Below, one piece after another: positions 14,284-30,442 of a stretch of DNA of 64,000 bases. This DNA comes from an uncultured Planctomycetia bacterium (GTDB lineage Bacteria > Omnitrophota > Gorgyraeia > 2-02-FULL-51-18 > JAGOUK01): positions 104,040-168,039 of the forward strand of contig CAYSFB010000004.1 in the NCBI GenBank assembly GCA_964430735.1. The letters are read 5' to 3'. How positions within the stretch are numbered: the first letter of the stretch is position 1; each line of letters opens with the position of its first letter. Below the pieces are notes generated by a model, which worked only from the letters and a program-made list of their open reading frames with translations, had not been told where the DNA came from and did no database searches. Made by a program: the position numbers and the translations under genes.

Positions 14284-14287
14284 GCGC

Positions 14288-14605: not shown

Positions 14606-14619
14606 ATACCCGTCTTTCA

Positions 14620-14695: not shown

Positions 14696-14716
14696 CTTTA
14701 CCTGTTTGAGGGCGAG

Positions 14717-15973
14717 TTATTTTTTCAAGCCGTCAGGCCGAGCGTCTGAGCGGCCCGCCGCAGCCCCTCTGCGGCCGTAAAAATCCAAAAAAACATCCGC
14801 TACGAGAGAATGTCCCGCCTCATTCCAGTGAAAATCGCCTTTTATGAAATACTTCCGGATCAGCGCCCGCCTTTCTTCGCGCGTGCCGCCTTTGACGAAA
14901 ATCGGAAAGTAGTTTAAAAAATCCACGCCGCGTTCACGGCACCATTCCTTCCAGAATCTGACCTGAATCGAATCCAGATCGCCGCGTTGGATCTGGCGGG
15001 GCCACGGGTATACGGCGACCGTGAGGCGGATGCCGTTTTTTTGAAGCAATGCGTTCAACCGGTCCATGTGGCCGGCCGCACGCCGCAGACCCTCCCGACC
15101 GTATTCCCGGTAGACGTTTCCGCAGTAGGTCCAGCGATCCCGCACGCGCGAAGAGTGCTGTTCCGCGAAGAAGCGCCGCTTGTTCTCGAGAATCCGCTCC
15201 GGATCCGGGCGGTAAAGGAGTTTGTGCAGCGCCATGTACACGGTATCCGCGACGATAGTCCGGCCCGCTATGAAAGACAATAACTCGTGCACAGCCGTCC
15301 GCCGTTCAGATTGGGATTTTTTTAACTCGAGCGGGTCGAATTTTCCGATCACGCGATGATTGCTCAGCTTATAAATTTGAGCTTCGTCCTGGATGTCGCT
15401 GATATCGACGTAGACGACGGCTTCATCGAACTTCAGCCCCGCTTTTTCAATCAGGAATTCGATTTTTTTCCAATAGATGACGGGGGAGTAGCTGGACACA
15501 CCCGCATTGAGAACTTCGACGCCGGATCCGGACAGTTCCGAATCGATCCGGCCGACGAACGTATCGGGGTATTCGACCCCCACGCCTTCCGTGAACGAGT
15601 CGCCTATGAAAAGGATCCGGTGTTTGTCCGTGACCAGAGGAATATTGCGTACCGTGCGGTCTTTGAATCCCAGCGAGTTTGTGTGGATCCGATATTTGGC
15701 CTGTCCCCATATTTGCGTGGCGCCGGAGAGGTTCTTGGCCAGATCGTGATGATAAATATCCGATCGGACCCTTCCGAGGGGGTGCATGCGGCCCGGCGGG
15801 TTCATCCGATCGTGCCATTTGTAGCCCTTGACCGACCGGTAGACCTCCGCTGCAGTCATATCCATGCCGACGGTGACGGCGAGGATGGTCGCACACAGCA
15901 GCACCATGGACGCGAGCGGATGCCGCTCGAATCGGGTTCGATGATTGTGTGTCGGTGACGGACGCTGGTTCAT
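14717..15973 (-). CDS. SGNH/GDSL-family hydrolase with N-terminal membrane anchor; possible glycan O-acyl esterase or transferase
   Basis: There is a TM segment (MVLLCATILAVTVGM). An FIGDSFTEG block I contains the catalytic Ser, and a GDFHWNEAGH block V contains the Asp/His. It is transcribed divergently from the glycan locus. Confidence 0.7.
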   Translation of the reverse strand: MNQRPSPTHNHRTRFERHPLASMVLLCATILAVTVGMDMTAAEVYRSVKGYKWHDRMNPPGRMHPLGRVRSDIYHHDLAKNLSGATQIWGQAKYRIHTNSLGFKDRTVRNIPLVTDKHRILFIGDSFTEGVGVEYPDTFVGRIDSELSGSGVEVLNAGVSSYSPVIYWKKIEFLIEKAGLKFDEAVVYVDISDIQDEAQIYKLSNHRVIGKFDPLELKKSQSERRTAVHELLSFIAGRTIVADTVYMALHKLLYRPDPERILENKRRFFAEQHSSRVRDRWTYCGNVYREYGREGLRRAAGHMDRLNALLQKNGIRLTVAVYPWPRQIQRGDLDSIQVRFWKEWCRERGVDFLNYFPIFVKGGTREERRALIRKYFIKGDFHWNEAGHSLVADVFLDFYGRRGAAAGRSDARPDGLKK

Positions 15974-16092
15974 AACCGCAGTTTATTCGGAACCCCTTTG
16001 TTCAACAATGAGATTAGGCGCCGGCCGCCTAGTAATACTTACTAATGTCATGTATTATATATTATTGTATATTTAGATCTATAGGAGTTTAA

Positions 16093-17148
16093 ATGGGGAC
16101 ATTGTTGGTAACAGGCTCGTCCGGTCTCATCGGGTCTGAGGTGTGCCGTTATTTTGCCCGATCCGGATGGACCCTCCACGGAGTCGATAATAACCAGCGG
16201 ATGGTCTTTTTCGGTCCGGAAGGGGACACGCGCTGGATGGGTCGGCAACTTCAGGCATCCATCAAAGGCTTTGTGCTTCACGAGACGGATATCCGGGACC
16301 GCGAAGCGGTGTTGAAGCTGGTTGAGCGCATCCGCCCCGATGCAATCGTTCATGCGGCCGCTCAACCCAGCCACGACCGCGCCGCCTCGATCCCTTTCGA
16401 CGACTTCGACACCAATGCGGTCGGCACGCTGAATCTGCTCGAAGCGGTCCGGCGCCATGCCCCCCGGGCCCCGTTCGTTCACATGTCCACCAACAAGGTT
16501 TATGGGGACGCCCCCAATGAAATCCCTTTGACGGAACTTCCGTCCCGCTGGGATTATGCCGATCCGTCGTATGCGAACGGTATTCCGGAAACTTTCCGAA
16601 TCGACCGGTCCAAGCACTCTCTGTTCGGGGCTTCCAAGCTGGCTTCCGATATCCTGGTTCAGGAATACGGCCGCTACTTCGGAATGTTCACCTGCTGTCT
16701 CAGAGGAGGGTGTCTCACGGGTCCGGACCATTCCGGCGTCGAGCTTCACGGCTACTTGAGCTATCTGATCAAATGCAACCTGGAAGGACGTATCTACAAT
16801 ATCTACGGATATAAGGGCAAGCAGGTCCGGGATAATATCCATTCGTATGATGTCGCGCGCTTCATGGAGGCTTTTATCGAAAAACCCCGCATCGCCGAAG
16901 TTTATAATCTGGGGGGCGGAAAAGAGAATGCCTGTTCGATTCTTGAGGCATTTGAGCGGGTTCAAGCGCACACGGGCAAAGCGATGCGGTCCGAGTATAC
17001 GGATAAGCACCGCGAAGGCGACCACATCTGTTATTACAGCGACTTGCGTAAAATGAAGGCGCATTATCCGGGGTGGTCTGTGACGCGATCCTTGGACGAT
17101 ATTTTTTCCGAGATCGCGGAGGCATGGTCCCGGAGGCGCGTACTGTGA
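16093..17148 (+). CDS. NAD-dependent epimerase, CDP-paratose 2-epimerase (tyvelose epimerase) family
   Basis: The N-terminal Rossmann motif is [11 protein letters not shown]. The motifs [26 protein letters not shown] and GYKGKQVRD match the CDP-tyvelose 2-epimerase pattern. An AGGAG RBS is present. Confidence 0.75.
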
Positions 17149-17173
17149 AGCCCGATCTGCAGAGCCGGCACCG

Positions 17174-18235
17174 ATGAGGGTCCTGATCACGGGCGCCGCG
17201 GGCTTTGTCGGAAGTCAGTTGGCAGAGGCGCTCCGTGCCGCATGCGCCGGGTTGAAACTGTTCGGTATCGATAATCTGAGCCGTAAGGGCAGCGAGATCA
17301 ACTTGGCGCGTCTTGCGCGCGCAGAATGCGCCTTTATCCGGGGGGACATCGGGCGCGCGGATGATGTTCGAAACCTGCCTGCCGCGGATTGGATCGTGGA
17401 TTGTGCGGCCGATCCGAGCGTGCAGGGAGGCATCAATTCCAGTTCCGAGCGCCTCGTATCCGACAATCTGATCGGCACATTGAATCTGCTTGAAAAATGC
17501 CGGCGCGATCATTGCGGGTTTGTCATGCTCAGCACGAGCCGGGTCTATTCGATCCATGATCTGCGGGCAATCCCTTTGTCCGGCTCGCCCGCGCGGTTCG
17601 ACCTCGATCCAGCCGGAAAATACCCGGCCGGCCTCACCTTGTCCGGAATATCCGAAAAATTCTCTACAGATTCGCCCCTGTCTCTCTACGGCGCGACCAA
17701 GCGCGCTTCGGAGATCATGGCATTGGAGTACGCCGCCGCCTTTGGATTCCCGGTCTGGATCGACCGGTGCAGCAACATCGCCGGCCCGGGCCAGTTCGGA
17801 AAACCTGATCAGGGCATCTACTCATTCTGGGTTTATCAGTGGCTGTTGGGGCGCCCCTTGCGATACACCGGGTTCGGGGGAGAGGGCAAACAAGTCCGGG
17901 ATCTCCTTGATGTCGCAGACCTTGCGCGGCTCGTTGTTCAGCAGGTGACCCGGCCGGCTCCGAAGGCTCCGCAAATCGTCAATGTCGGAGGGGGGGCGGA
18001 GCGATCCATCAGCCTCAAAGAACTTTCGGCATTTTGCGGGACCGCCCTAAAAGTTTCGCGCGAGGTCGTCTCCGAGCCCGATACGCATGCTTTTGATATC
18101 CCCTATTTTGTAACGGACAACCGCGCCGTCTCGGAGCATTGGGGTTGGCATCCCGAAATCCGATTGGATGAAACGCTCCGATCGATCGTCGAATGGGCGC
18201 GGGAACATAGGTCCCAAATCGAGTCGGGATTCTAA
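17174..18235 (+). CDS. Second CDP-paratose 2-epimerase-family NAD-dependent epimerase (paralog)
   Basis: The sequence contains ITGAAGFVGSQL, DNLSRKGSEINLARL, TLNLLEKCRR, STSRVYS and GEGKQVRD. Confidence 0.7.
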   Translation: MRVLITGAAGFVGSQLAEALRAACAGLKLFGIDNLSRKGSEINLARLARAECAFIRGDIGRADDVRNLPAADWIVDCAADPSVQGGINSSSERLVSDNLIGTLNLLEKCRRDHCGFVMLSTSRVYSIHDLRAIPLSGSPARFDLDPAGKYPAGLTLSGISEKFSTDSPLSLYGATKRASEIMALEYAAAFGFPVWIDRCSNIAGPGQFGKPDQGIYSFWVYQWLLGRPLRYTGFGGEGKQVRDLLDVADLARLVVQQVTRPAPKAPQIVNVGGGAERSISLKELSAFCGTALKVSREVVSEPDTHAFDIPYFVTDNRAVSEHWGWHPEIRLDETLRSIVEWAREHRSQIESGF

Positions 18236-18237
18236 TT

Positions 18238-19440
18238 ATGCACGGACGCGCGAATGCGCCGATTCGCATCCTCTATGTGTCCGCGATCACGCCCGACGAA
18301 TCGTGCGGGGCGCATTTGGCCATGTGCCGGCATCTGGTGCATCGCAAGAATTTTGATACGGCCGTGCTCAGCACGAATGCGGCGAATGCTCTGACGGACC
18401 GCAAGATGAGCCTGGCAGCCACGGGCATCAAACACCGTTTGCTGCATTCAAGGATCGCGGCTCTTGCCAATAACCTGGATTACGTCATGAACTGGTCGCG
18501 TCTGGACGGACGCGCGGTACGATTTGCCGCCGATGAGGCTCCGGATATCATCTTGTCTGTCCCGGATAATTGGCATCTGGGGGTGGCCGTACGGCTCGCA
18601 AAAAGACTCGGCAAGCCGCTCGCGCTGAACTTTCAGGACCTGAGCCCGATTTCGAATTATCTGCCCGGGTTCATGCGGCCATTTCCACCGGTCCGAAGCT
18701 ATTTAACCCGCATGTTCCGCCGCGCCCATCGTTCGGCGGACCTGGTTTTTTATACGAGCGAGGGGATGCGCGACTGGTTCGAGCCTCATCCGAATGGACA
18801 CATCCTCTATCCGATGGGGGATTGGGACCGGCCCGTGCCGGATCCGGCACGGCGGGCCGCAGCGCCGGGTGCGCGGTTCCGGGTGGTGTATGCCGGGAAT
18901 TGCTACGGGGCCTATGGACGCATGCTTCTGGGGTTAGCGCGTATGCTCAAGAATTCGGCTCATATCGATCTGAAGATTTATCCAGTCGGCGCCGGATGGG
19001 CGGAACGGGACATTCGGGAGATGAGGCAGGCGGGGATTTACCAGCATTTTCTGCCGTTTGGACAGTTGAGGCCTGAGTTGGAGAAAGCCGATGCTTTTTT
19101 GACGGCGATGAGCTTTGAACCGTCGGAAGCGCCTTTCGTCAAGACGAGCTTTACGACCAAATGGCTGGATTACGCTCCTTACGCCAGACCGATCGTCGTT
19201 TGGGCTCCGTCTTATTCGACGGCAGCCGGTTTTGCGGTCAAGAACGGCTGCGGTCTCGTGATCGACGATCCGGACCCGGTGCGGCTGGCTTCCGCTCTGC
19301 TGGATGTTTCGAGGGACGGCAGTTTACGGAGAACGTTGGGGGAGCAAGCGGCAGCTGTCTCCGAGACGCTGCTGAATCCGCGGCTGATCCACGGGGTGTT
19401 CGTCGATCAGATCACCCGTTTGGCGGGCCCGCGGACATGA
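18238..19440 (+). CDS. Putative GT-B fold glycosyltransferase (divergent)
   Basis: It sits among sugar-modification genes. A C-terminal VVYAGNCYGAYG...IYP...ERDIREM segment resembles a GT4-like nucleotide-sugar binding half. Similarity is weak. Confidence 0.4.
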   Translation: MHGRANAPIRILYVSAITPDESCGAHLAMCRHLVHRKNFDTAVLSTNAANALTDRKMSLAATGIKHRLLHSRIAALANNLDYVMNWSRLDGRAVRFAADEAPDIILSVPDNWHLGVAVRLAKRLGKPLALNFQDLSPISNYLPGFMRPFPPVRSYLTRMFRRAHRSADLVFYTSEGMRDWFEPHPNGHILYPMGDWDRPVPDPARRAAAPGARFRVVYAGNCYGAYGRMLLGLARMLKNSAHIDLKIYPVGAGWAERDIREMRQAGIYQHFLPFGQLRPELEKADAFLTAMSFEPSEAPFVKTSFTTKWLDYAPYARPIVVWAPSYSTAAGFAVKNGCGLVIDDPDPVRLASALLDVSRDGSLRRTLGEQAAAVSETLLNPRLIHGVFVDQITRLAGPRT

Positions 19441-20375
19441 ATCGATCCGTTTGTATCGCGATTCTGAACTGGCGCGGAAAAAAATATCTGGGTGAATTGC
19501 TGCCGTCGGTCGTGGCGGCTGCCGCCCGGTATCCGGGAAAGGCGGACGTTATTTTTTTGGATAATAACGGGCCAGACCAAGAGGATCGTGAATGGGTGAA
19601 AAAGCACCATGGTTCCGTCAGAATTGTGGCGGCCCCGTCCAATGATTATCTGTTCTCCTACAATGAGCTTCTCAAGAGCTCCGGCTACGACATTTTTATC
19701 TTGTTGAACAATGACATTGCGGTTGAGGAGGGGTTCGTGATGCCGTTGGCGGCGCATTTTGACGATCCTTCAGTTTTTTCGGTCAGCGCCAGATCCTTCA
19801 GCTGGGACCGCTCGGCTGTTACATCAGGCCCCTTTCTTCTCCGTAAGCATCGAACGCATTATTTCTTTACGCCGGATTACCGGAATCAGAATACCGTTTA
19901 CACGCTTTTCGCCTGCGGCGGTTTTATGGCGGTGGACCGCTCCAAATTCCTCGAGCTCGGAGGGTTCGACCGCCTGTATTACCCGGCTTACGGAGAGGAG
20001 ATGGACCTTTGTTTCAGGGCCTGGCTACGAGGATGGTCTTCGATCTATGAACCGCGGAGTACGGTGAGGCACTGGGGAAGCGGTTCTTGGGGAGGGGATG
20101 AGCATCCGGGCGGGAGCAGCGAGCATCTGAATCTAAGATCGGCCTTTTTATTCCAGTGGCGGTATCTGGCGCATTTGGACGGCAAAGCCGCGCGATTTTT
20201 GTATGACCGGTGGTGTTGGATCAGGGCTTTTCTCAGACGGGACCAGGCGTGGATCGATTCCTTCCGGGAAGCGCGACAGGTGTGGAGATCCAGGGGCGGG
20301 GAGGCGAAGCGGGTCCGGGTCAGCCGGGTCGAATTGGAACGGATCGTACAAGCCATCGGAAGGAGGGTTGCATGA
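19437..20375 (+). CDS. Family 2 glycosyltransferase
   Basis: Taking the internal ATG gives MNRSVCIAILNWRGKKYLGELLPS...IFLDNNGPD...LLNNDIAVEE. This carries the GT-A DxD-type signature. The start overlaps the upstream stop (ATGA). Confidence 0.7.
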   Translation: MNRSVCIAILNWRGKKYLGELLPSVVAAAARYPGKADVIFLDNNGPDQEDREWVKKHHGSVRIVAAPSNDYLFSYNELLKSSGYDIFILLNNDIAVEEGFVMPLAAHFDDPSVFSVSARSFSWDRSAVTSGPFLLRKHRTHYFFTPDYRNQNTVYTLFACGGFMAVDRSKFLELGGFDRLYYPAYGEEMDLCFRAWLRGWSSIYEPRSTVRHWGSGSWGGDEHPGGSSEHLNLRSAFLFQWRYLAHLDGKAARFLYDRWCWIRAFLRRDQAWIDSFREARQVWRSRGGEAKRVRVSRVELERIVQAIGRRVA

Positions 20376-21301
20376 TCCCGAAGCCGAATTTTTTTATCGT
20401 GGGATCGGCCAAATGCGGGACCTCGACATTGGCTCGGATTTTGGACCAGCATCCGGACTGCTGCATGAGCCGTCCGAAGGAGACCTGCTTCTTCAGTTTT
20501 GATCATCTCTATGAACAAGGGTGGGATTGGTATCAGACCGCCTTTGCTCATTACAATCGTGAGATTGCCATCGGGGATGCAACGCCCACTTATTCCACGA
20601 TGCCGTTTTATCCGGATTGTGCCGAAAGGATCCATGCCTTCAACCCTGCGGCCAAGATCATCTATATCGTCCGCCGCCCGATGGCAAAACTCATATCGGG
20701 ATGGCGGATGCATCACCATACGGACAGTCTGCCGGAAGACCAAAAGCGCGACATGATCCGGACGTTATACACCGAACCGTTGAGATTCGATCCATCCGCA
20801 ATGTGGAAATCCGCGGGCGAAGGCTTCGAGCGCTGGGTGATGAACTCAGTGAGGGGCAGTGTTCTGGACGATTGCCTTTATGATTATCAGTTGGAAGCTT
20901 ACCGCAGGGTCTTCCCGGACAGCGCGATCATGGTCGTCTTTCTCGAGGATTGGGTCAGCGATCCGAGGAAGGAATACGAGCGTCTTTGTGTCCATCTGTC
21001 GCTGTCTCCGGGTAACCTCAGCGAGTCGGACCTGCGGGGATACAACCGCGCGGATGACCGTATGGTTGAGAGGGCCTATTTCGCGTCTTTGCGCCGGTCG
21101 CCTTGGATCGGCCGGTTCAAGGGCCTGGTGCCCGTGAACGTGAGATACCGGATCGGGAGAATGATCGGCATCAAATCAGTCGAGCCTCCGGAGCCCGATA
21201 TATCGGACCGTTTGCGGGCCGAGATCCGGGAATACCTCTGCCGGGACACGGAGAGGTTCTTGAGCCAATATGGAAAACCGGCGGATTTTTGGCAGTGGTA
21301 A
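20372..21301 (+). CDS. PAPS-dependent sulfotransferase
   Basis: An AGGAGGG RBS is present. The 5-prime-PSB motif is FFIVGSAKCGTSTL and the 3-prime-PB motif is YIVRRPMAKLISGW. Confidence 0.75.
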   Translation: MIPKPNFFIVGSAKCGTSTLARILDQHPDCCMSRPKETCFFSFDHLYEQGWDWYQTAFAHYNREIAIGDATPTYSTMPFYPDCAERIHAFNPAAKIIYIVRRPMAKLISGWRMHHHTDSLPEDQKRDMIRTLYTEPLRFDPSAMWKSAGEGFERWVMNSVRGSVLDDCLYDYQLEAYRRVFPDSAIMVVFLEDWVSDPRKEYERLCVHLSLSPGNLSESDLRGYNRADDRMVERAYFASLRRSPWIGRFKGLVPVNVRYRIGRMIGIKSVEPPEPDISDRLRAEIREYLCRDTERFLSQYGKPADFWQW

Positions 21302-21333
21302 CCGATTCCATCGGACGCCAAGGCCGAATTTCC

Positions 21334-22275
21334 GTGATCACACCTCTTTATAACAAGGCGTCCTACATCGAGGCGACCGTGGGATCGGTCCTGGCGCAGA
21401 CCTGCACGGATTGGGAATGGCTGATCGTCGACAATAATTCGACGGACGGGAGCGTCGAACGGGTTCGCCGGTTCGGCGATCCGAGGATCCGGCTGATGCA
21501 TTGCGCGAAACAGGGGCCCGGCGCGGCGCGCAACCGGGGATTTGACGAAGCGTGCGGAGAGTGGATACTGCTGCTCGACGCGGACGACTTGCTGGAGCCT
21601 TCGTATCTTCAAAAGCAGCTGGAGACAGCGGAAAGGCATCCGGATGCCAGTCTGGCAGCCTCGGCCTGGTGCCAATTTGAATCGGAAGATCCGTCCCGGG
21701 TTAAAATGGTCGAGCCCGCGGGATTGCGCATGTCGCCGCAGGCGCTCAAGGATTATTCAATCGCTTTTTGCCCGTGGGCGCCGCACGCAGCGATTTTTAA
21801 GCGGTCGCTGTTGTCGGATCGGGAGGCTTATTTTTCTGAGGAGCTGGACGCGTTTGCCGCGGAAGACCTGAACTTCTGGTTCAAGATTCTGGATCGATCG
21901 GAGGTCGTATTCGGCGGCTATGCAGGCGCGCGCTACCGGTATCACGTACCGCAAAGCCGCAACCCGGATCAGGATATCGTCAAATGGTTCGAGGCGCTCG
22001 ATCGCACGGTCCGCTTGAATTTAAGTTACTTGTCGAGGCATTCGCGCGCCTTGTCCGACGATCACCGCGAGCATTTGGTGCGTTTGTATTCCGGTTTGTA
22101 CGCGCAGGCGAATCGCGCGGGAAACAAGGATGTTGCGAGACTGGCGCGTTGCGAATCCGGAAAGTGGCTGAGGGAATATCTGGAGCATGCGCGCAAACCC
22201 AAAAAATCCATGCGGCTGCGCGCACTTTTCGGACCCGCAATTTATAGCCGGGCCATGGCTGCGTTCGGGCGGTAG
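21334..22275 (+). CDS. Family 2 glycosyltransferase
   Basis: The sequence reads ISVITPLYNKASYIEATVGSVLAQTCTDWEWLIVDNNSTDGS...ARNRGFDEACGEWILLLDADD. A GTG start is chosen after the sulfotransferase stop; the track ORF starts further upstream. Confidence 0.7.
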   Translation: MITPLYNKASYIEATVGSVLAQTCTDWEWLIVDNNSTDGSVERVRRFGDPRIRLMHCAKQGPGAARNRGFDEACGEWILLLDADDLLEPSYLQKQLETAERHPDASLAASAWCQFESEDPSRVKMVEPAGLRMSPQALKDYSIAFCPWAPHAAIFKRSLLSDREAYFSEELDAFAAEDLNFWFKILDRSEVVFGGYAGARYRYHVPQSRNPDQDIVKWFEALDRTVRLNLSYLSRHSRALSDDHREHLVRLYSGLYAQANRAGNKDVARLARCESGKWLREYLEHARKPKKSMRLRALFGPAIYSRAMAAFGR

Positions 22276-22336
22276 CAGGGATTGTGCCGAGAGAAGCTCC
22301 AAGAAGCTTTTATATAGAAGGAACCAAATAAGACTT

Positions 22337-23578
22337 ATGGAAAAATCATGCATGAATTGCCGCGGCGGCAATCTGGTCGAATTCATCGATTTGGGCAATC
22401 AGCCGAACGGGAACAATTTTCCGTTGCCCGGATCCCGGGAGGCGGAACCGCTCCTTTCCATGGCCATGAAGGTCTGCCAGGATTGCTGGCAGGTGCAGAT
22501 TTCCCAGTTTCCGGAACAGGAATTTCTTTTTACGGACCACCCGTATATTACCGGGGTCAACGTGCCGATCGTCCAGCACTTCGAGCGGCTTTCGGGCCAT
22601 CTGGTCCAAAAACTCGGGTTGAAGCCGCAATCGCTGGTGATGGACATCGGCTGCAACGACGGAACCCTTCTCAAGGCGTTCGAAGTGCGGGGCATGCGCG
22701 TCGTCGGCGTCGATCCCAGCGGCCGGGTTGGCGAGTTGGCACGGTTGAACGGAATCAACGTGTTTCACACCTTCTGGAATCTGCAGGCGGGGAAGAGCTT
22801 GAAGCAGCTCAATCTGCTCCCGGATCTCATCACTGCGACCGCCGTTTTTTATCACGTGCCGGACCTTCATGACTTCGTTCTGGGCTTGAGGGAGGTGATG
22901 CACGAAAAAACGGTATTCGCCGTTCAGTGCGTCAACCTGAAGGACTTGATCGAAAAAAATCAATTCGACCATTTTTATCACGAACACAGCTGCATCCATG
23001 CGATCGCTCCGCTCAAACGTTTGTTCGGGGAGCACGGTTTGCGGCTGCTGGACGTCGAATTCATCGATATTCACGGAGGTTCTTTCGTCTTGTACGTCGG
23101 CCTCGATTCCAACCCGACCCCGACCAGCCCGGCGGTTCAGAATGCGATCGATCTCGAAAAACGGGCGGGGCTGGACAAGCTGGAGACTTACCGGGAATTC
23201 GCCCGGCGCACGCGGCAAAATGCGGATCAGCTGGTCGGGCTTTTGCGCCAGCTCAAGAAGGACGGCAAGCGGGTTTATGCTTTGGGCGCGCCGGCAAAGG
23301 GCAGCACGCTTCTGAACTATTGTCAGATAGGCCCCGACCTCGTCCAATGCGCGACGGAAGTGAACCCGTTCAAGATCGGCCGCCTGACGCCTGGAACCCA
23401 CATTCCAGTGGTTGATGAAAAAAACGTGCAGGACGATCCGGAGTATTACCTGATTTTGTCTTGGAACTTCCTGGACTACCTGATCGTCAAATACAAATCC
23501 TATCTGATGAGGGGCGGCAAGTTCATCGTGCCGATTCCGACCATCCGCGTTCTCTCGTTCGATACGGTGGGCCGGTGA
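22337..23578 (+). CDS. Sugar C-methyltransferase (TylC3/NovU-like: N-terminal Cys4 zinc domain plus class I SAM MTase)
   Basis: The zinc ligands are CMNCRGGN...CQDCWQVQ and the SAM motif I is VMDIGCNDGTLL. The architecture is that of C-3 methyltransferases acting on NDP-4-keto-6-deoxyhexoses. Confidence 0.65.
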   Translation: MEKSCMNCRGGNLVEFIDLGNQPNGNNFPLPGSREAEPLLSMAMKVCQDCWQVQISQFPEQEFLFTDHPYITGVNVPIVQHFERLSGHLVQKLGLKPQSLVMDIGCNDGTLLKAFEVRGMRVVGVDPSGRVGELARLNGINVFHTFWNLQAGKSLKQLNLLPDLITATAVFYHVPDLHDFVLGLREVMHEKTVFAVQCVNLKDLIEKNQFDHFYHEHSCIHAIAPLKRLFGEHGLRLLDVEFIDIHGGSFVLYVGLDSNPTPTSPAVQNAIDLEKRAGLDKLETYREFARRTRQNADQLVGLLRQLKKDGKRVYALGAPAKGSTLLNYCQIGPDLVQCATEVNPFKIGRLTPGTHIPVVDEKNVQDDPEYYLILSWNFLDYLIVKYKSYLMRGGKFIVPIPTIRVLSFDTVGR

Positions 23579-24528
23579 TGGCGGAGGGAGCGGTGAAACA
23601 CGCGGTGGTGACGGGCGCAACGGGGTTTATCGGCAGCGTTCTGCTTGAGAGACTGAAGCGCGAAGGTGGCGGGGATTCCTCTGTTACGGGACTCGGCTCG
23701 AAAGACGTCGACCTGACCGACGGCGGGGCGTCCTTTGCCTGGTTCAAACAGCAGTCGCTCAAGCACAAGGTCAGCCATATTTTTCATCTGGCCGCCGTTT
23801 ACAAGGCGGGAGGATGGCCGGCCGCGCATCCGGCGACTCAATTTTATGCGAACATGTCGATCAATGTGAATTTACTGGAAGCGTGGGCGCGGCACTGTCC
23901 CAAGGCCCGGCTCGCCAGCGTTTTATCCTACTGCATGTACCCGCCGCACGACCGGCCGCATCCGGAAACCGAACTTCAGGGGACGGAGCCGGAAGAATAT
24001 TTGTACAGCTACGCCATGACCAAAAAATCCCTTTTGATCGGCCAGCGCGCGTACCGACAGGAGTATGGGATGAGCTGCACCGCCGTCATCCTGCCGACCG
24101 TGTACGGGCCGAACGACAGCTTCGCCGAAGATTCCCATGTGATGGGCGCCATGATCGGAAAGTTTGTCCGGGCCGCCCGGTCGGGAGCGGATACGGTGGA
24201 AGTGTGGGGAGACGGTCTGCAGGAACGGGAGTTCCTCTATGTCGACGACGCGGTTGACGGATTAATCACGGCCGCAGCCAAATCGCAGGCGGATGTCCTG
24301 AATCTGGGTGCCGGCCGGACGCATTCGATCCGGGAGATTGCGGACTTGATTGCAAAAGCCTCCGGGTTCAAAGGGAAGATTCAGTACAACCCGGCCCGCT
24401 TTACCGGTGTTTTGAAGCGCTCGCTGGATTCGAGCCGCGCCGCCCGCGAGCTCGGCTGGACCGCGCAAACTTCCATAGAGACGGGGATTCAAAAGACGGT
24501 GCAGTGGTATGAGCGCCATCTCGGTTAA
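23578..24528 (+). CDS. GDP-L-fucose synthase-like NDP-4-keto-6-deoxyhexose 3,5-epimerase/4-reductase
   Basis: The Rossmann motif is VTGATGFIGS. The blocks HLAAVYKAGGW, SYCMYPP, LPTVYGPNDSF, VWGDGLQEREFLYVDDAV and ARELGW are collinear with Fcl/WcaG. The start overlaps the upstream stop (TGATG). Confidence 0.7.
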   Translation: MAEGAVKHAVVTGATGFIGSVLLERLKREGGGDSSVTGLGSKDVDLTDGGASFAWFKQQSLKHKVSHIFHLAAVYKAGGWPAAHPATQFYANMSINVNLLEAWARHCPKARLASVLSYCMYPPHDRPHPETELQGTEPEEYLYSYAMTKKSLLIGQRAYRQEYGMSCTAVILPTVYGPNDSFAEDSHVMGAMIGKFVRAARSGADTVEVWGDGLQEREFLYVDDAVDGLITAAAKSQADVLNLGAGRTHSIREIADLIAKASGFKGKIQYNPARFTGVLKRSLDSSRAARELGWTAQTSIETGIQKTVQWYERHLG

Positions 24529-25636
24529 ATTCAAGTCTGCGCTCAAGGCCGCCGGCGGCGTCTTATGGCCGGAGTATTATTATCGGCTCACTCCGGCAAT
24601 GAGCGCAGTCCTTCGTCAGTCGCGGCTCATCGTGGCGGACGCAGGTTCGTGCGGCGGGCCGGATGTCCGGTGGCTTCCGCTGAAGGGCCTGGTGCATTTC
24701 CTGGCCTTTGAGCCGGATGCCCGTTCCTCCCAAACTTCCCCGGACGCCAATTGCACATATTTTGCGGTCGGGCTGGGCCGGCGTAAGGAAACGCGTCCGC
24801 TTCATTTGACCCAATTTCCGCCGGCCTCGTCGCTTTATCCTTTGAATCAGGAACGCCTCAAGGACTTTGCAAACCGGGAGTGGCATCAGGTGACCGGATC
24901 CAGTCTGATTCCGCTCGATACGATGGACGCCTGTCTGGCGGACCGTCCCGATCTGGCGCCGGACTTTTTAAAGGTGGACGTCGAAGGCGCGGATTTGGAC
25001 GTCCTGAATGGGGCGTCGGGACTGTTGGCGGCCGGCATTCTGGGCGTTCAGGCGGAGGTGACGTTTTTGGAGCGGCATCTCGGGGCTCCGTTTTTCGGGG
25101 AGACGGACCAGTTCCTGCGGAGCAGGGGGTATGAGCTTTTTGCGCTGCTGCGCGAGCGCTGGCTGCGGACGAATCGGACCTATGGAGCCAATTCCAATCC
25201 CCAAATCGTTTGGGCGGATGCCGTTTATTTTTTAAATCGAGAATCCATGCTCCGCCGGCTCCAGGAAAGTTCGCCGGACGGTAGGAGGATTCTTTTGGTC
25301 AAATTCGTGACGTTGCTGCTTTGTTACGGGGCGCATGATTATGCCGTCGAAATAACGGACGCGGCCCGGTCTGCGGGTCTTGCGGACGCTGCGGATGCGG
25401 AAGATCTCAAGAGGGCCGTCGAGCAGTCGGTTCGAGGCTTTGCCGACGTTTTGATCCGTTCCGCCCTCGGTGCTGTTTTGTCTCTTTGCCTTTGGATCGT
25501 GTCGCTTCCGTTTGCGCGGGCCCGGAACCGCGCTTTGCAGTACTTGAAAAGACATGTGTCCGAATGTTCCGACGCTCTGTCCCGATTCTCGAACCGTTGC
25601 GGAGTGAACGGTTCATGCGTGCCGGACGCCAGATGA
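24509..25636 (+). CDS. FkbM-family methyltransferase
   Basis: The segment FLKVDVEGADLDVLNGASGLL is an FkbM signature. Confidence 0.7.
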   Translation: MSAISVKFKSALKAAGGVLWPEYYYRLTPAMSAVLRQSRLIVADAGSCGGPDVRWLPLKGLVHFLAFEPDARSSQTSPDANCTYFAVGLGRRKETRPLHLTQFPPASSLYPLNQERLKDFANREWHQVTGSSLIPLDTMDACLADRPDLAPDFLKVDVEGADLDVLNGASGLLAAGILGVQAEVTFLERHLGAPFFGETDQFLRSRGYELFALLRERWLRTNRTYGANSNPQIVWADAVYFLNRESMLRRLQESSPDGRRILLVKFVTLLLCYGAHDYAVEITDAARSAGLADAADAEDLKRAVEQSVRGFADVLIRSALGAVLSLCLWIVSLPFARARNRALQYLKRHVSECSDALSRFSNRCGVNGSCVPDAR

Positions 25637-26850
25637 CTGCCGAGAAGCGCCTTCTGATCGTCGAGGAGGCTCTGAAGGATCGCCGGGGGCATTGGTACGA
25701 ATACGATAAAGCGGTCCGGTCGATCAACGCTGCGCGCGGAGTGAGCGTCGTAGTTGCGGCGCATCAGTCGGTCGCTCCGGAAATTATGACCGAGCTCAAT
25801 GCGGCGCCAGTTTTCCGGTATACGAATTGGGATCAGATCTATTACAGCGCCCGCCCGTTCAAACGGTACTGGGGCGTTCTCGTGCACAACTGGCGGGTTT
25901 GGCGCGCGATGGACCGGTTTCTGAAAGACTCGGAGCCCTTCGACCATATTTTTGTGCCGACCGTCGCCGTTTTTCACCTCGCCGCCTGGTTTTTTCTGTG
26001 CATGCGGCACAAAAATAAAAAATTTAAACGGCTGACACTTCTTTTTCGAAACAATGCCGGACGTTATGTTGCGGGACAATCCCGGCCGGTGTTCAAGCGG
26101 TCGTCCTACATCCTGCGACAGTTGCTCCGCAGCTTCGGACCCTGGGTTCGGGACGGCGCGGTTTGTCTGGCCACGGACAGCTCCAGACTCTCGGCCGAGT
26201 ATACCGCGCTCTGCGGACTGCCTTTTCAAACTTTTCCACATGCGCTGATCCGGACGCACACGGCGACAGTCCACTTGCGGAAGTCCGGGGATCCGGTCGT
26301 TTTGGCGTGTCTGGGTCCGGCGCGTCTCGAAAAGGGTATTGACCTGCTGGAGAAGGCCGTCCGGTTATTGCTGGATCGGAAGCCGGAATTGAATGTCCGG
26401 TACGTCATCCAGTGGAATCAGGAATTGCGGACATTGGACGGCGGCCGAATCGAGCCTGATTCGGGGCTCGTGAAGAGCGGCCGGGTGGATTATTTGACCC
26501 GCGAACTCTCCAGCGACGAGTATGACCGGCAGCTTCTCAGAGCGGACTGCATGGTGCTGCCCTATCGCCGGGAATCCTACTGCGCCCGAATTTCGGGCGT
26601 GGCTCTCGAGGCGATGGCCGCCGGGATTCCGCTGATCTACACCCGGGATACCTGGATGGAGGACGCCGTTCTGGCTCACGGGGCGGGTCTGGCGGTTGAA
26701 GACGAAAGCGCCGAAGACCTCGCGGACAAAATTACCGAGATGGTCTCCCGCGCGGATGAGTTCAGGGCCGCCGCTGCCCGGCGTTCTGCCGCCGCAGTCG
26801 AACATCATTCGCCCGAGCGTTTGATGGCCGCATTATGGGGCGGGGCGTGA
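25633..26850 (+). CDS. GT-B fold glycosyltransferase (GT1/GT4-like)
   Basis: The C-terminal half LPYRRESYCARISGVALEAMAAGIPLIYTRDTWMEDAV resembles a GT4 EX7E region. The start is chosen at the ATGA overlap. Confidence 0.6.
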   Translation: MTAEKRLLIVEEALKDRRGHWYEYDKAVRSINAARGVSVVVAAHQSVAPEIMTELNAAPVFRYTNWDQIYYSARPFKRYWGVLVHNWRVWRAMDRFLKDSEPFDHIFVPTVAVFHLAAWFFLCMRHKNKKFKRLTLLFRNNAGRYVAGQSRPVFKRSSYILRQLLRSFGPWVRDGAVCLATDSSRLSAEYTALCGLPFQTFPHALIRTHTATVHLRKSGDPVVLACLGPARLEKGIDLLEKAVRLLLDRKPELNVRYVIQWNQELRTLDGGRIEPDSGLVKSGRVDYLTRELSSDEYDRQLLRADCMVLPYRRESYCARISGVALEAMAAGIPLIYTRDTWMEDAVLAHGAGLAVEDESAEDLADKITEMVSRADEFRAAAARRSAAAVEHHSPERLMAALWGGA

Positions 26851-28010
26851 AGATTCTTTATTATTCTCCCGCCGCTCACGGCGGCATCGCCGACTATGCG
26901 CACGAACAGGCGAACGCCTTGGCGGATCTGGGGACGGAAGTGACGCTGTTGTGCACGCCGCGTTATGTCCGGGGCCGCGGTGAGAAGTACGCGATCGCGG
27001 CTGATTTGAAGGACGCGGGCTCATTTTTGGCCGGTGCGCCCCGCTGGCTGAAGCGCGTGGATTATGTCCGGGCGACCCTTCGTAACTTTAAGACGCTCGC
27101 CCGGCAGATCAAGGCTTCCGGCTCGAACTACGTTCTGCTCGGATCCTATCAGGAATATCTGGCGCCTCTCTGGGCGCCGGAGTTCAAGAAATTGGCGGCG
27201 CGGGGAGTCGTATTCGGGGCTATCCTGCACGATCCGGTCCGGGATTACGTCGTCGGCCCTCGCGGGTGGCATCGGTGGTCGGTCGCGGAAGGGTATTCTT
27301 TTCTGAGAGAGGCCTTTGTGCACGAGCCGATTCAGCTCGATACGGTCCGGCCCGTCCCCGGCTTGCGGACGACGGTGATTCCCATGGGACCCTTTCGCCA
27401 GACCGCCTCCCGGCGCACCCGCGAAGAGATGAGGCGGAGTCTGGATCTTCCCGGCGATGCGCCGGTGCTGCTGGCCTTCGGACATATCCATCCCAACCGG
27501 AAGAATCTCGATCTGATCATTCACTCTCTGAAGCATCATCCGTCCGTTTATCTCGTGGTCGCCGGGAGCGACGAGTCGACGGGGCAAAAGGTGGTCGAGG
27601 CGTATAAAAAACTGGCGGCCGATCTTGGCGTGGCTGACCGCTGCCGTTGGCATATCGACTATATCCCGAACGAATGTGCGGGGGATTATTTTGTCGCGGC
27701 GGACCTCGTGGCGCTGGTCTACAAGGGAATGTTCCGCTCGGCCAGCGCGGTGCTGAATGTCGCCGCCGTTTACCGGAAACCCTGTATCGCCTCGTCCGGC
27801 GCCGGAAACCTCCGATCCGTCGTCGAAAAATACCGGCTGGGGGTTTGGGTGGAACCCGATAATCTGGATACGCTGGTTTCCGGCATCCGGCGTTGTCTGG
27901 ATTCCGGGACGGTTCCGGACTGGGACAGGTACCTGGCCGAAAATTCATGGGAAACAAACGCGGCGGCGGTGATCGAAAAAATGGAAGCGCCGGGGAGATT
28001 GCGCTCATGA
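26835..28010 (+). CDS. Family 4 glycosyltransferase
   Basis: The sequence reads VVAGSDES...ADLVALVYKGMFRSASAVLNVAAVYRKPCIASSGAGNLRSVVE. Confidence 0.65.
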   Translation: MGRGVKILYYSPAAHGGIADYAHEQANALADLGTEVTLLCTPRYVRGRGEKYAIAADLKDAGSFLAGAPRWLKRVDYVRATLRNFKTLARQIKASGSNYVLLGSYQEYLAPLWAPEFKKLAARGVVFGAILHDPVRDYVVGPRGWHRWSVAEGYSFLREAFVHEPIQLDTVRPVPGLRTTVIPMGPFRQTASRRTREEMRRSLDLPGDAPVLLAFGHIHPNRKNLDLIIHSLKHHPSVYLVVAGSDESTGQKVVEAYKKLAADLGVADRCRWHIDYIPNECAGDYFVAADLVALVYKGMFRSASAVLNVAAVYRKPCIASSGAGNLRSVVEKYRLGVWVEPDNLDTLVSGIRRCLDSGTVPDWDRYLAENSWETNAAAVIEKMEAPGRLRS

Positions 28011-28705
28011 ACGGAGGCATGTACGGAAGCGGCGAGTATGTGGATAAAAACCCTTCTTGGCATTCCGAAGATTCCGAATGGAAGGCCGGTCAGATTCTCA
28101 AAATGATGGACCGGAATCGGCTGCTCCCGAATTCGATGTGCGAGGTCGGCTGCGGCGCCGGCGAGATATTAAACGGTCTGCACAACCGGATGCCGAAGCA
28201 CGTTGTATTTTCGGGTTATGAGATCTCGCCGCAAGCGTTCGACATATGCCGGCAGAAAGAAAAAGAACGACTGAAGTATTATCGCGGGAACATGCTCGAG
28301 TCCGAGACCCCTTATTCCGACATCGCCCTGGCGATCGACGTCTTTGAACATGTGGAGGATTATCGGGGGTTTCTCCGTCAATTGCGCCTGAAGGCAGCGC
28401 ACAAAATTTTCCACATTCCGTTGGACTTGTCGGTCTCGAGCGTTTTGCGGGGCTCGCCTTTGGCAAACGCCCGGAAGCGCGTCGGACACATCCATTATTT
28501 TACGAAAGAGACCGCGATCGAGACGCTGAAGGACACCGGCTACGAGATCCTCGACCATTTTTATACCGCAGGATCGATAGATCTTCCCTCGAAGTCCCTG
28601 GCGGCTTCACTGGCCCGGCTGCCGAGGCAAATGATCTACCGCCTCCACCCGGACACGGCGGTCCGATGGCTGGGCGGATATTCGCTTATGGTGCTGGCAA
28701 GGTAG
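28007..28705 (+). CDS. Class I SAM-dependent methyltransferase
   Basis: Motif I is CEVGCGAGEIL, the acidic residue after beta2 is in SGYEIS, and a later motif is IDVFEHV. The start is an ATGA overlap. Confidence 0.7.
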   Translation: MNGGMYGSGEYVDKNPSWHSEDSEWKAGQILKMMDRNRLLPNSMCEVGCGAGEILNGLHNRMPKHVVFSGYEISPQAFDICRQKEKERLKYYRGNMLESETPYSDIALAIDVFEHVEDYRGFLRQLRLKAAHKIFHIPLDLSVSSVLRGSPLANARKRVGHIHYFTKETAIETLKDTGYEILDHFYTAGSIDLPSKSLAASLARLPRQMIYRLHPDTAVRWLGGYSLMVLAR

Positions 28706-28712
28706 CGCACCC

Positions 28713-29873
28713 ATGAAAGTCGCGTTGATCTGGTCCAATTTCATGTCCTACCACGTGGCGAGACTTCGCGCGCTTCAGGAGAAGAGTGCGGACGACGTTC
28801 TGGGGATCGAATTGACCGGTGCGGGGGACAGCGCGGGTCTGGCCCTCTGGCAGAGCCGGGAGAGGCAGGGGCTTCGAATTGAGACACTTTTTCCAGAAAC
28901 GGATTTGAGGACGCTGCCGCCGGGCCGGATTGCGGAATCGCTGATCCGCAAGATGACCGAGAACGGAATTCAGGCGGTATTCGTGAACGGATACGGAACG
29001 CCGGAGATGCGGCGCGTCATCCGATGGGCCGGAAGAAGCGGCGTGGCGTGTTATATTTTTTCGGAAACCAAGAAAAACGACTTCAGGCGGTTTTTCTGGA
29101 AGGAATGGTTCAAGAGGTGGATTCTGCGCGGGGTGGACGGGGCCATTTGCGGCGGCAGGCTTCATCGGGAGTATCTGGAGGACCTGGGGATGCCGGCAGA
29201 ACGCATCTTCACCGGATACGACGTCGTCGACAACGCTTTTTTTGCGGTCCGCAGCGACGAGGCGAGAGGCCGCGCGGCCGAGATGAGACTTGCGCACGCG
29301 CTGCCGGCCCGTTATTTTTTATCCGTCTGCCGTTTTGTGGAAAAGAAGAACCTGGAACGTTTGATCTCGGCCTACCAGCATTATCGGCAGAGCTGTTCCG
29401 GAGGCGATCCGTGGGCACTCGTGCTGTGCGGAGCAGGGCCTCTCGAAACCCGTCTCAAGGATCGGGTGCGAGAAGAGGGTATTCCGGGCGTCGTGTTTGC
29501 CGGTTCCAGGACGTCGGAAGAGCTCGCCGTTTATTACGGGTTGTCCGAATGTTTCGTGCTGGCGAGCACCACGGAGCAGTGGGGGTTGGTGGTCAACGAG
29601 GCCATGGCCAGCGGAGTACCGGTGCTGGTGAGCCGGGCGGCCGGCGCGGCCGACGAACTGATCGAAGAGGGGGTGAACGGATTTACATTCGACCCATTCA
29701 ATATCGGCCAGATCGCCGCACATTTTTGTAAAATACATGCGATGTCCGGCGTTGAGCGCGCGGCCCTGGGGCGCCGGGGAAGGGGCAAAGTGGCGGAGTA
29801 TTCACCCGGGCATTTTGCGGACGGCGTTTTATCGGCGCTCCGTATACAGCCGCGAAATCAAGAGAGAAGGTAG
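28713..29873 (+). CDS. Family 4 glycosyltransferase
   Basis: The sequence FVLASTTEQWGLVVNEAMASGVPVLVSRAAGAADELIEEGVNGFTFDP carries an EX7E motif. Confidence 0.75.
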   Translation: MKVALIWSNFMSYHVARLRALQEKSADDVLGIELTGAGDSAGLALWQSRERQGLRIETLFPETDLRTLPPGRIAESLIRKMTENGIQAVFVNGYGTPEMRRVIRWAGRSGVACYIFSETKKNDFRRFFWKEWFKRWILRGVDGAICGGRLHREYLEDLGMPAERIFTGYDVVDNAFFAVRSDEARGRAAEMRLAHALPARYFLSVCRFVEKKNLERLISAYQHYRQSCSGGDPWALVLCGAGPLETRLKDRVREEGIPGVVFAGSRTSEELAVYYGLSECFVLASTTEQWGLVVNEAMASGVPVLVSRAAGAADELIEEGVNGFTFDPFNIGQIAAHFCKIHAMSGVERAALGRRGRGKVAEYSPGHFADGVLSALRIQPRNQERR

Positions 29874-29877
29874 GAAT

Positions 29878-30408
29878 ATGTTGTTGTGGAAAAAGAAGCG
29901 GACGCCGGCCGTGATTTGGTTCACCGGGCTTTCCGGAGCCGGCAAGTCCACGATCGGCGAGCAGATGGCGAAGGAACTCAAAGCGCGGGGGATCGATTTT
30001 GAGTGGCTGGACGGCGATTCGATCCGGGACATCTTTCCGGGGACCGGGTTTTCCAAGGAAGAGCGCATCAAGCATATCGCCCGGGTCGGGCACCTGGCGA
30101 GCGTTTTGGAGCGGCACGGCGTATTCGTTCTGGCGACTTTCGTCTCGCCCTATGAGGCTTCCCGCGACTTCGTCCGGTCCATCTGCAAAAATTACGTGGA
30201 AGTGTACGTATCGACCGATTTGGCGGAATGTGAGCGGCGCGATGTTAAAGGCCTCTACAAAAAAGCCCGCAAAGGGGAGATCCAGAACTTTACCGGGATC
30301 AGCGATCCTTATGAAGTTCCGACGCGTCCGGATCTTGTGATCAATACTCAGGAAGTGCCCGTTGCCCGGGCGGTCCGGATGATTCTGGACCGGCTCAAGA
30401 TCCGCTGA
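29878..30408 (+). CDS. cysC: Adenylylsulfate (APS) kinase
   Basis: The P-loop is VIWFTGLSGAGKSTIG. The blocks LDGDSIR, FVSPY and LYKKARKGEIQNFTGISDPYE are present, and the length (176 aa) is typical. Confidence 0.85.
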   Translation: MLLWKKKRTPAVIWFTGLSGAGKSTIGEQMAKELKARGIDFEWLDGDSIRDIFPGTGFSKEERIKHIARVGHLASVLERHGVFVLATFVSPYEASRDFVRSICKNYVEVYVSTDLAECERRDVKGLYKKARKGEIQNFTGISDPYEVPTRPDLVINTQEVPVARAVRMILDRLKIR

Positions 30409-30413
30409 GAAGA

Positions 30414-30442
30414 TTGATACCGCGGGGTTCAGAGGTTATACT
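30414..30442 (+). promoter_or_regulatory. Consensus-like sigma70 promoter: TTGATA, 17-nt spacer, TATACT
   Basis: The -35 and -10 hexamers have ideal spacing, ~75 nt upstream of the repeat-protein ATG. Confidence 0.5.

Follow-up and report, generated by a model that had tools for sequence, protein, structure and literature searches.

How could a bacterium assemble a sulfated and methylated surface glycan from a locus that holds no gene for priming, flipping or exporting it? The question is raised by a gene array at positions 14717–30408 of a 64-kb stretch of contig CAYSFB010000004.1, from an uncultured bacterium of the phylum Omnitrophota. The whole 64-kb stretch is called the window here, and coordinates are positions in it unless a relative is named. 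The array consists of a divergent SGNH-like gene (g0, minus strand) and 14 tightly packed genes on the plus strand (g1–g14, 16093–30408). It is a sulfotransferase-bearing surface-glycan locus with its own supply of 3′-phosphoadenosine 5′-phosphosulfate (PAPS), a type already known and present in many phyla, and two marks distinguish it: the lack of membrane machinery and an added branched-sugar module. What the locus encodes of a glycan pathway is confined to the cytoplasm. We think it probable that the product is a lipid-linked, decorated oligosaccharide or repeat unit, with priming, flipping and transfer encoded elsewhere.

Sulfation is predicted from two genes, g5 and g14. The sulfotransferase g5 begins directly with its 5′-phosphosulfate loop (GSAKCGTST, residues 11–19), which fits the pattern GxxKxGT[ST]; in an alignment with 15 homologues its residues G11, K14, G16 and T17 are invariant. 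In the 3′-phosphate motif RRPMAKLIS (RxPxxxxxS), which aligns with 'lrdpservls' of heparan sulfate (HS) 3-O-sulfotransferase 1 (3-OST-1), the same alignment shows R101 and P103 as invariant and S109 as nearly so. Sequence searches of the PDB matched g5 to the bacterial sulfotransferase 3rnl (1.5e-19) and to HS 3-OST-1 (1.2e-14). An AlphaFold model (predicted local distance difference test, pLDDT, 88.7) also had 3rnl as its best fold match in the PDB (1.7e-14), followed by heparan sulfate 3-O-sulfotransferase complexes with 3′-phosphoadenosine 5′-phosphate (PAP) and oligosaccharide (~1e-11). A hydropathy scan found no membrane segment in g5. The adenylyl-sulfate (APS) kinase g14 scores 191 bits against TIGR00455 (curated cut-off 138.7) and aligns along its length with the APS kinase 5cb6 (9e-44), matching the P-loop GLSGAGKST and the LDGD, FSxxxR and SPY motifs. 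Its gene, cysC, lies inside the inserted segment described below, 4 nt past the last glycosyltransferase gene, and is therefore borne by the cluster rather than being a neighbouring housekeeping gene. The preliminary description of this DNA had proposed that sulfotransferase and CysC form a PAPS-dependent pair, unless residues for PAPS binding or catalysis turned out to be lost; the PAPS motifs of g5 and the P-loop of g14 are kept. The putative role of g5 is to sulfate a glycan acceptor using PAPS.

The second part of the question concerns what is absent. Pfam scans of the large open reading frames (ORFs) of the window returned no Wzx, Wzy, Wza, Wzc, glycan ABC exporter or priming transferase; stated by function, the 64 kb hold no recognisable priming phosphoglycosyltransferase, flippase or ABC exporter, polymerase, polysaccharide co-polymerase (PCP) or outer-membrane polysaccharide export (OPX) protein. 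The ABC domains of the window belong to UvrA only. A tblastn search of the window with the ABC, Wzc and Wza proteins of relatives gave no match, and no ORF with three or more membrane segments appeared in any frame of the island in the hydropathy scan. Beyond the anchored g0, the island proteins lack membrane anchoring save for a single hydrophobic segment in g9 and in g10. The earlier statement that the window has no export, polymerase or initiating-transferase genes thus held up under Pfam, tblastn and hydropathy searches alike. Since each enzyme is either soluble or held by a single anchor, and PAPS is cytoplasmic, assembly, methylation and sulfation would take place at the cytoplasmic face. 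A gene pair for an outer-membrane efflux protein (OEP) and AcrB (53736–58239) was considered as the exporter of the island and rejected as a generic resistance-nodulation-division (RND) efflux pair unrelated to it. The pair belongs to a series of MarR, outer-membrane efflux protein and AcrB-type RND pump (53278–58239), with no recognisable membrane-fusion protein between.

Gene bounds were taken from an ORF listing and inspection of start codons, and family calls from Pfam, NCBIfam and PDB sequence searches (Table 1). ORF listing, starts and junctions agree with the contiguous array and divergent left-border gene that had been outlined before, and the profile and PDB searches reproduced all 14 family calls for g1–g14: two short-chain dehydrogenases/reductases (SDRs), six glycosyltransferases (GTs), a sulfotransferase, three methyltransferases, an Fcl-like enzyme and CysC. 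From g1 to g14 the successive junctions measure 25, 2, −4, −4, 32, 76, −1, −20, −4, −16, −4, 7 and 4 nt, so that genes overlap at 7 of the 13 junctions and the widest gap is 76 nt; from this spacing, g1–g14 may be co-transcribed. The divergent spacer between g0 and g1 is 119 nt. The weakest family call is that of g0. GDSFTEG and DFHW blocks and one N-terminal membrane segment are visible in it, and for the SGNH assignment made earlier both Pfam families, Lipase_GDSL_2 (29.3 bits) and ALGX (25.8 bits), score slightly under their gathering thresholds (GA).

Table 1. Features of the locus and of the comparison loci; coordinates refer to the window unless a locus handle is given
Feature	Coordinates	Strand	Basis
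tRNA-Ala(CGC)	14620–14695	+	ARAGORN; Rfam tRNA 71.2 bits
Inserted island, ~15.8 kb	14703–30465	none	Synteny breaks against L083; GC3 (G+C content at third codon positions)
g0, membrane-anchored SGNH/AlgX-like esterase or acyltransferase, divergent	14717–15973	−	Sub-threshold Pfam matches; island-like GC3
g1, extended SDR of the CDP-tyvelose 2-epimerase family, Phe for catalytic Tyr (FGASK)	16093–17148	+	PDB 9rl0, 1orr
g2, second tyvelose-epimerase-like SDR, canonical YGATK	17174–18235	+	PDB 1orr
g3, GT4-like (GT-B) glycosyltransferase	18238–19440	+	Glyco_trans_4_4, 34.8 bits (GA 29.7)
g4, GT2 glycosyltransferase	19437–20375	+	Glycos_transf_2, 35.1 bits (GA 23.3); start overlaps g3 stop by 4 nt
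g5, predicted PAPS-dependent carbohydrate-type sulfotransferase, soluble, cytoplasmic	20372–21301	+	Sulfotransfer_3, 64 bits; Sulfotransfer_1, 46 bits
g6, GT2 glycosyltransferase	21334–22275	+	Glycos_transf_2, 115 bits; start as on Logan contig L001
g7, NDP-hexose 3-C-methyltransferase (TylC3/TcaB9 type)	22352–23578	+	Methyltransf_13 + 23 + 14; PDB 4rv9
g8, Fcl/GMER-like 3,5-epimerase/4-reductase	23578–24528	+	NF047922, 170 bits; PDB 1bsv, 8.8e-34
g9, FkbM-family methyltransferase, one C-terminal hydrophobic segment	24509–25636	+	Methyltransf_21, 52.5 bits; hydropathy scan
g10, GT1/GT4 glycosyltransferase	25633–26850	+	Glycos_transf_1, 51 bits
g11, GT4 glycosyltransferase	26835–28010	+	Glycos_transf_1, 48.9 bits
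g12, class I S-adenosylmethionine (SAM) methyltransferase	28007–28705	+	Methyltransf_23, 43.4 bits
g13, GT4 glycosyltransferase	28713–29873	+	Glycos_transf_1, 102 bits
g14, APS kinase CysC, predicted PAPS supply	29878–30408	+	APS_kinase, 180 bits; TIGR00455
PglK-like half-size ABC exporter upstream of sulfotransferase, related loci	L086 7308–9104; L087 8101–9927; L088 7267–9075; also in L003, L006, L008, L012, L013

The sugar-modifying enzymes form the next step. The best PDB matches of g1 are the CDP-tyvelose 2-epimerases 9rl0 (1.6e-37) and 1orr (2.9e-33), and 1orr is also that of g2 (3e-26); the two proteins are 32% identical to each other. With its YxxxK motif (YGATK) kept at residue 172, g2 looks catalytically competent, and g1 is atypical, as discussed below. 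At E < 1e-60, g1 has at least 8000 homologues, the best of them 74–77% identical and the named ones mostly cyanobacterial. Its homologues also occur without g2, in a Wzm/Wzt-type cluster of Calothrix PCC 7507 and, elsewhere, in a cluster rich in methyltransferases. 4,6-Dehydratases carry an Asp/Glu pair (TDEVYG); g1 and g2 have STN(K)/STS(R)VY in its place, and their best solved relatives are tyvelose epimerases, and on these grounds neither was accepted as the missing 4,6-dehydratase. Pfam scans found none of the CDP-3,6-dideoxyhexose genes (ddhA-D/rfbFGHI, rfbS) in the window.

The three Pfam domains of g7 correspond to a Zn-binding N domain with a visible CxxC...CxxC, a SAM domain and a C-terminal domain, and the protein matches TylC3 (PDB 4rv9) over its full length (1.3e-81), its 'fyhehs' aligning with 'iyhehl' (the YxEH active-site motif). 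The adjoining g8 is Fcl-like, yet judged by its profile score it is no Fcl equivalog. Its 'lsycmyp', 'ysyamtk' and 'dshvmga' align with 'gssciyp', 'epyaiak' and 'nshvipa' of E. coli GMER (1bsv), so that the Ser-Tyr-Lys triad and the Cys and His are kept, residues which we take to be Ser107, Cys109, Tyr136, Lys140 and His179 of the E. coli enzyme. By their families, g9 and g12 probably O-methylate the glycan. Of the C- and O-methylated deoxy-sugar product proposed before, the families and motifs of the C-methyltransferase and the Fcl-like enzyme were reproduced, and the O-methyl groups are suggested by family membership.

Comparison with other genomes shows what kind of locus this is. GTDB species representatives were scanned for relatives of the sulfotransferase, and the neighbourhoods of 80 related loci were compared. 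Among 5.8 billion proteins the closest homologues of g5 are 41–43% identical, and so no close copy of the island is known. The GTDB representatives contain at least 600 stretches matching the search pattern, at least 512 of which encode relatives of g5 (the best 45% identical among the matches listed). Sulfated bacterial glycans had been called uncommon at the outset; set against these stretches and the published capsule loci with PAPS genes and sulfotransferases, this is overstated at the genomic level.

With clusters of Cyanobacteria, Thiotrichaceae, Verrucomicrobiota and Bacteroidota the island has a seven-gene core in common, consisting of g1, g2, g3, the sulfotransferase, g6, g10 and g11. 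Homologues of several of these genes are grouped in similar order in Xenococcaceae (L003), a Thiotrichaceae metagenome-assembled genome (MAG; L004/L086), Thiomargarita nelsonii (L013), Phormidesmis (L011/L087), Winogradskyella aurantia (L006), Mangrovimonas, Verrucomicrobiales (L008) and Puniceicoccaceae (L009). Identities in these loci are 69–71% for g1, 43–48% for g2 and 34–45% for the sulfotransferase, and g3, g6, g10 and g11 are found in subsets at up to 54%, the value for g11 in the Xenococcaceae locus. Counted across several phyla, g1 is 69–77% identical to its homologues, a degree of conservation unmatched by any other protein of the cluster family. Pairs of neighbours recur as well: homologues of g2 (44–46%) adjoin those of g1 in seven loci, homologues of g3 (26–46%) adjoin the sulfotransferase, and homologues of g10 (30–38%) adjoin those of g11 in Xenococcaceae, W. 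aurantia and Verrucomicrobiales. In anammox MAGs of Ca. Loosdrechtia and Ca. Jettenia (L024 7157, L026 5725), a sulfotransferase homologue lies 3–4 kb from a C-methyltransferase 34% identical to g7.

The members given a handle above form a cross-phylum family with the order SDR, SDR, PglK-like ABC exporter, sulfotransferase, GT4, hexapeptide acyltransferase, GT1. The exporter is a protein of ~600 aa with ABC_membrane and ABC_tran domains, encoded directly upstream of the sulfotransferase in about 10 genomes and within 8 kb of it in three more; its best full-length solved bacterial relative, among the matches listed, is the lipid-linked-oligosaccharide flippase PglK (2e-70). Clusters with this exporter gene directly before that of the sulfotransferase were seen in at least four phyla. 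Some related loci also carry Wzc-like and Wza-like genes. The Omnitrophota island differs in lacking the ABC exporter, the hexapeptide acyltransferase and genes of Wzc/Wza type, and it brings in two methyltransferases (FkbM and class I), one more GT4 and a cysC of its own. The gene just before that of the sulfotransferase, which in relatives encodes the ABC exporter, is here the GT2 gene g4, and g3 lies upstream of the sulfotransferase rather than downstream. In the Thiotrichaceae locus a GT2, a C-methyltransferase 67% identical to g7 and an epimerase follow one another, and the locus also holds two sulfotransferases and export genes. We found no experimental work in the literature on this SDR-SDR-ABC-sulfotransferase family.

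Among characterized systems, Vibrio sp. KMM 8419 and Cobetia marina KMM 1449 offer a likeness in sulfate supply, since their capsule loci place the PAPS-supply genes cysC and cysDN beside sulfotransferases and glycosyltransferases. The polymers have been solved, and PAPS genes with sulfotransferases were called a hallmark of sulfated polysaccharide synthesis (PMC11641403, PMC11766843). These loci differ in comprising 70–80 genes with kpsDMTE/kpsSC ABC export, sugar-nucleotide genes and cysDN/cysQ, whereas the island has cysC only and no export. The xss cluster of Synechocystis sp. PCC 6803 makes the sulfated exopolysaccharide synechan (Maeda et al. 2021, PMC8205485, which also mentions Nod-factor sulfation); like the island, it joins glycosyltransferases and sulfotransferases in one locus, and its product is a sulfated heteropolysaccharide. 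It has Wzx, Wzy, a PCP and the regulators XssQRS and lacks cysC and a C-methyltransferase, whereas the island lacks Wzx, Wzy and PCP. In cyanobacteria, clusters with sulfotransferases are frequently partial and follow the Wzx/Wzy or ABC pattern (PMC8205485). A sulfotransferase inside a glycosyltransferase cluster is also reported for Pontiella (class Kiritimatiellae), which makes sulfated exopolymers (PMC7356697).

For the branched sugar, a parallel is the in silico scheme for virenose of Coxiella burnetii lipopolysaccharide, which runs from Gmd through a TylC3-like 3-C-methyltransferase to GMER (PMC3539893). Both surface-glycan loci have a TylC3-type C-methyltransferase adjoining a GMER/Fcl-like enzyme (g7–g8 here). 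The island has no Gmd, and its genes do not fix the nucleotide carrier (GDP or dTDP) or the stereochemistry. NodH with NodPQ is a further case of PAPS-supply genes co-located with a carbohydrate sulfotransferase, in which the lipo-oligosaccharide Nod factor is sulfated in the cytoplasm. The likeness, by description only, lies in a dedicated PAPS-supply gene beside a carbohydrate sulfotransferase; the island differs in lacking the chitin-oligosaccharide synthase set, and g5 is closest to the 3rnl/HS 3-OST-like group.

Is the locus a settled part of the genome? The host lineage is indicated by RpoD of the window, whose named homologues (≤87% identical) are almost all from Candidatus Omnitrophica/Omnitrophota. 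The gene for g5 is present on a MAG contig of 238 kb and also on Logan assemblies from two sequencing runs. A relative whose RpoD is 90% identical (L083) is collinear with the window over 10098–14702 and 30546–36274 at 75–77% nucleotide identity, and between these blocks it has only 1.7 kb with an AlgE-like porin gene (Alginate_exp). Already at the flanking protein x_114, identity to the L083 counterpart is 77%. Synteny stops at 14702, and the island starts 8 bp past the 3′ end of tRNA-Ala(CGC). GC3 is 0.695 in the island genes and 0.808 in the flanks (Mann-Whitney p = 3e-6). Upstream of rsmE, a second relative (L084) encodes a Wzc-like ATPase, a Wzy_C protein, a WecA-like Glycos_transf_4 protein, PilZ and a DAO oxidase; in a third (L091), the site is occupied by DAO and small ORFs. 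Between cutA/tRNA-Ala and rsmE, the gene set thus differs in each of four closely related Omnitrophota genomes (window 14703–30465; L083 4710–6245; L084 1–6689; L091 1–4883). The locus coincides with an accessory island gained by horizontal transfer, a segment that is absent from three relatives, deviates in GC3 and borders a tRNA gene; the island occupies a strain-variable, partly polysaccharide-related site.

Classical site-specific integration is unsupported, as a search of the far island border found no direct (att) repeat of the tRNA-Ala 3′ end; Pfam found no integrase domain in the island either. The only other match to this 3′ end is the paralogous tRNA-Ala(GGC) at 44493, which accounts for what looked like an 81-nt inverted repeat of the border of the island. 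An 87-nt element common to the relatives, at first taken as a repeat, is the tRNA gene itself.

The mechanism that we favour draws these parts together. An NDP-4-keto-6-deoxyhexose would be methylated by g7 and then reduced by g8, giving a 6-deoxy-3-C-methylhexose after the Coxiella scheme, and g1 and g2 probably reshape another NDP-hexose. The six soluble glycosyltransferases would suffice for a repeat unit, or for a heteroglycan made in at most about six transfers. The glycan would be decorated by the putative O-methylations of g9 and g12 and by sulfation, for which g14 would make PAPS and g5 would move the sulfate to a glycan still at the cytoplasmic face. Elsewhere in the genome there would have to be genes for priming the lipid carrier, for flipping or exporting and for ligating or polymerising the glycan, and also for the 4,6-dehydratase, for sugar activation and for ATP sulfurylase. 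With a PglK-like flippase directly upstream of the sulfotransferase in related clusters, the most likely route is that of a lipid-linked oligosaccharide, which would be decorated, flipped by an unlinked transporter and moved to lipid A-core, protein or the cell surface.

Several points weigh against this reading. The product, transcript and activity of the island are predictions from sequence. The window has no 4,6-dehydratase, nucleotidyltransferase, ATP sulfurylase or ligase; the pathway is incomplete as seen, and the deoxy-sugar route depends on genes elsewhere. The score of g8 against the GDP-L-fucose synthase profile NF047922 (170 bits) falls far short of the cut-off of 500 bits. At the position of the catalytic carboxylate g5 has Asp (GDATPTY), where 3-OST-1 (EKTPxY), 3rnl and most homologues have Glu; Asp is found in 3 of the 15 homologues. 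Scans for sigma-70 promoters and intrinsic terminators gave no excess over shuffled expectation and are uninformative on operon structure. (An Rfam scan of the whole window returned five tRNAs only, with no riboswitch or leader within the island.) A further point concerns g1, in which 'hslFgask' aligns with 'hspYgcsk' (YGCSK in 1orr and 9rl0) and Phe takes the place of the catalytic Tyr. The corresponding Y165F mutant of Salmonella TyvE (SeTyvE) is inactive (PMC12188384), and g1 is therefore not a canonical 2-epimerase. A literature search for a Tyr-less subgroup of tyvelose epimerases turned up that loss-of-function result only. The two genes had been introduced as CDP-paratose-2-epimerase-family paralogs; the family holds for both, but for g1 the label 'epimerase' is unsafe. 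Since the most conserved protein of the cluster lacks its catalytic Tyr, the SDR steps are tentative. The Phe is a family-wide conserved feature and not a sign of decay: FGASK is present in 120 of the 120 best homologues of g1. The NAD-binding glycines, the threonine of STNKVYG and the lysine are kept in g1.

The lack of priming, flipping, polymerising and exporting genes over 64 kb and of any polytopic ORF in the island would also fit a cytoplasmic system that is complete in itself and independent of an undecaprenyl carrier, a flippase and a polymerase. Such a system would make a sulfated, methylated glycolipid by building straight onto a membrane lipid, on the model of mycobacterial sulfoglycolipids or Nod-factor sulfation, or it would glycosylate proteins in the cytoplasm before secretion, possibly the giant proteins typical of the lineage. 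The replacement of the ABC flippase of other phyla by a GT2 and the giant ORFs in the same window point in this direction, and so do the weak matches of g13 to glycolipid synthases (monoglucosyl-diacylglycerol synthase, GlcN-PG synthase), although these are sub-threshold and far below the cut-offs. We consider this alternative rather unlikely. The core is common to clusters with PglK-like, Wzc-like and Wza-like genes, which argues for the same lipid-linked type of product, and a close relative has WecA-like and Wzy_C genes at the very same site, which shows carrier-based pathways to be in use in the lineage. In cyanobacteria, moreover, it is the usual situation that a cluster is partial and its machinery lies elsewhere (PMC8205485).

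A bolder form of this idea, which we regard as a long shot, takes the exporter-less set as functional in itself. A nanosized, possibly host-dependent Omnitrophota bacterium would then put a sulfated, C-methyl-branched and O-methylated oligosaccharide directly on lipid or on giant surface proteins, and the strain-variable locus would tune recognition of host or prey. The Tyr-less yet extremely conserved g1 would here be a non-redox partner, or would perform new chemistry, in a nucleotide-sugar step of thousands of glycan clusters.

Least probable of all is that the segment is a mosaic of unrelated or decaying fragments, with cysC serving assimilatory sulfur metabolism, the sulfotransferase acting on a non-glycan acceptor and the C-methyl genes making another product: the modular look (the g7–g8 pair and the group of g1, g2, sulfotransferase and g3 are found separately in other genomes), the presence of a CysC homologue within 10 kb of the sulfotransferase in only 2 of the 80 related loci, the essential upstream enzymes missing from the window and the Tyr-less g1 would suit it, but all 14 plus-strand genes are intact ORFs with conserved motifs that overlap or nearly abut and share one compositional signature unlike the flanks, cysC lies within the inserted segment, the Phe of g1 is conserved throughout its family, and the Thiotrichaceae cluster joins the same modules (two sulfotransferases and the C-methyltransferase) with export genes in one locus.

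By Pfam, the left flank of the island encodes UvrA, a TPR protein, ExbB, ExbD and CutA, with a weak TonB-like match from NCBIfam, and the right flank RsmE, CvpA, DnaG, RpoD, AddAB, a giant ORF, MarR, OEP, AcrB, MgtE and LeuRS. Directly right of the island, a small ORF (30466–30810; 114 aa, 63–77% identical in relatives) has a signal-peptide-like N terminus and holds a 33-nt tandem repeat in 2.9 copies (30667–30762). Besides the tRNA-Ala at the island, tRNAs for Met and Val follow rpoD (36197–36481) and those for Leu and Ala(GGC) follow addA (44398–44568). The giant ORFs at 21–5237 (≥1738 aa) and 44801–53209 (2802 aa) have almost no Pfam matches, and the stretch with the first is lower in GC and rich in A. 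Their syntenic counterparts in relatives encode 3343–4943 aa with an alpha/beta-hydrolase domain.

We know of no study of envelope glycans in Omnitrophota. Literature searches found nothing on the cell-surface chemistry of this widespread uncultured phylum, and nothing relevant under Omnitrophota and sulfotransferase. The island gives a concrete prediction of a sulfated, methylated surface glycan in the phylum. The site between cutA/tRNA-Ala and rsmE varies between close relatives, as O-antigen and capsule loci typically do when phages or hosts exert selection. Two implications reach beyond this lineage. The Tyr-to-Phe SDR family of g1, with its thousands of homologues, is a separate lead in nucleotide-sugar enzymology. 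The spread of the cluster family over five or more phyla, mostly together with a PglK-like flippase, is an argument for sulfated lipid-linked glycans being commoner in environmental bacteria than the literature on model organisms suggests, and the recurrence of a PglK-like exporter beside the sulfotransferase in several phyla suggests a widespread, unstudied pathway for making them.

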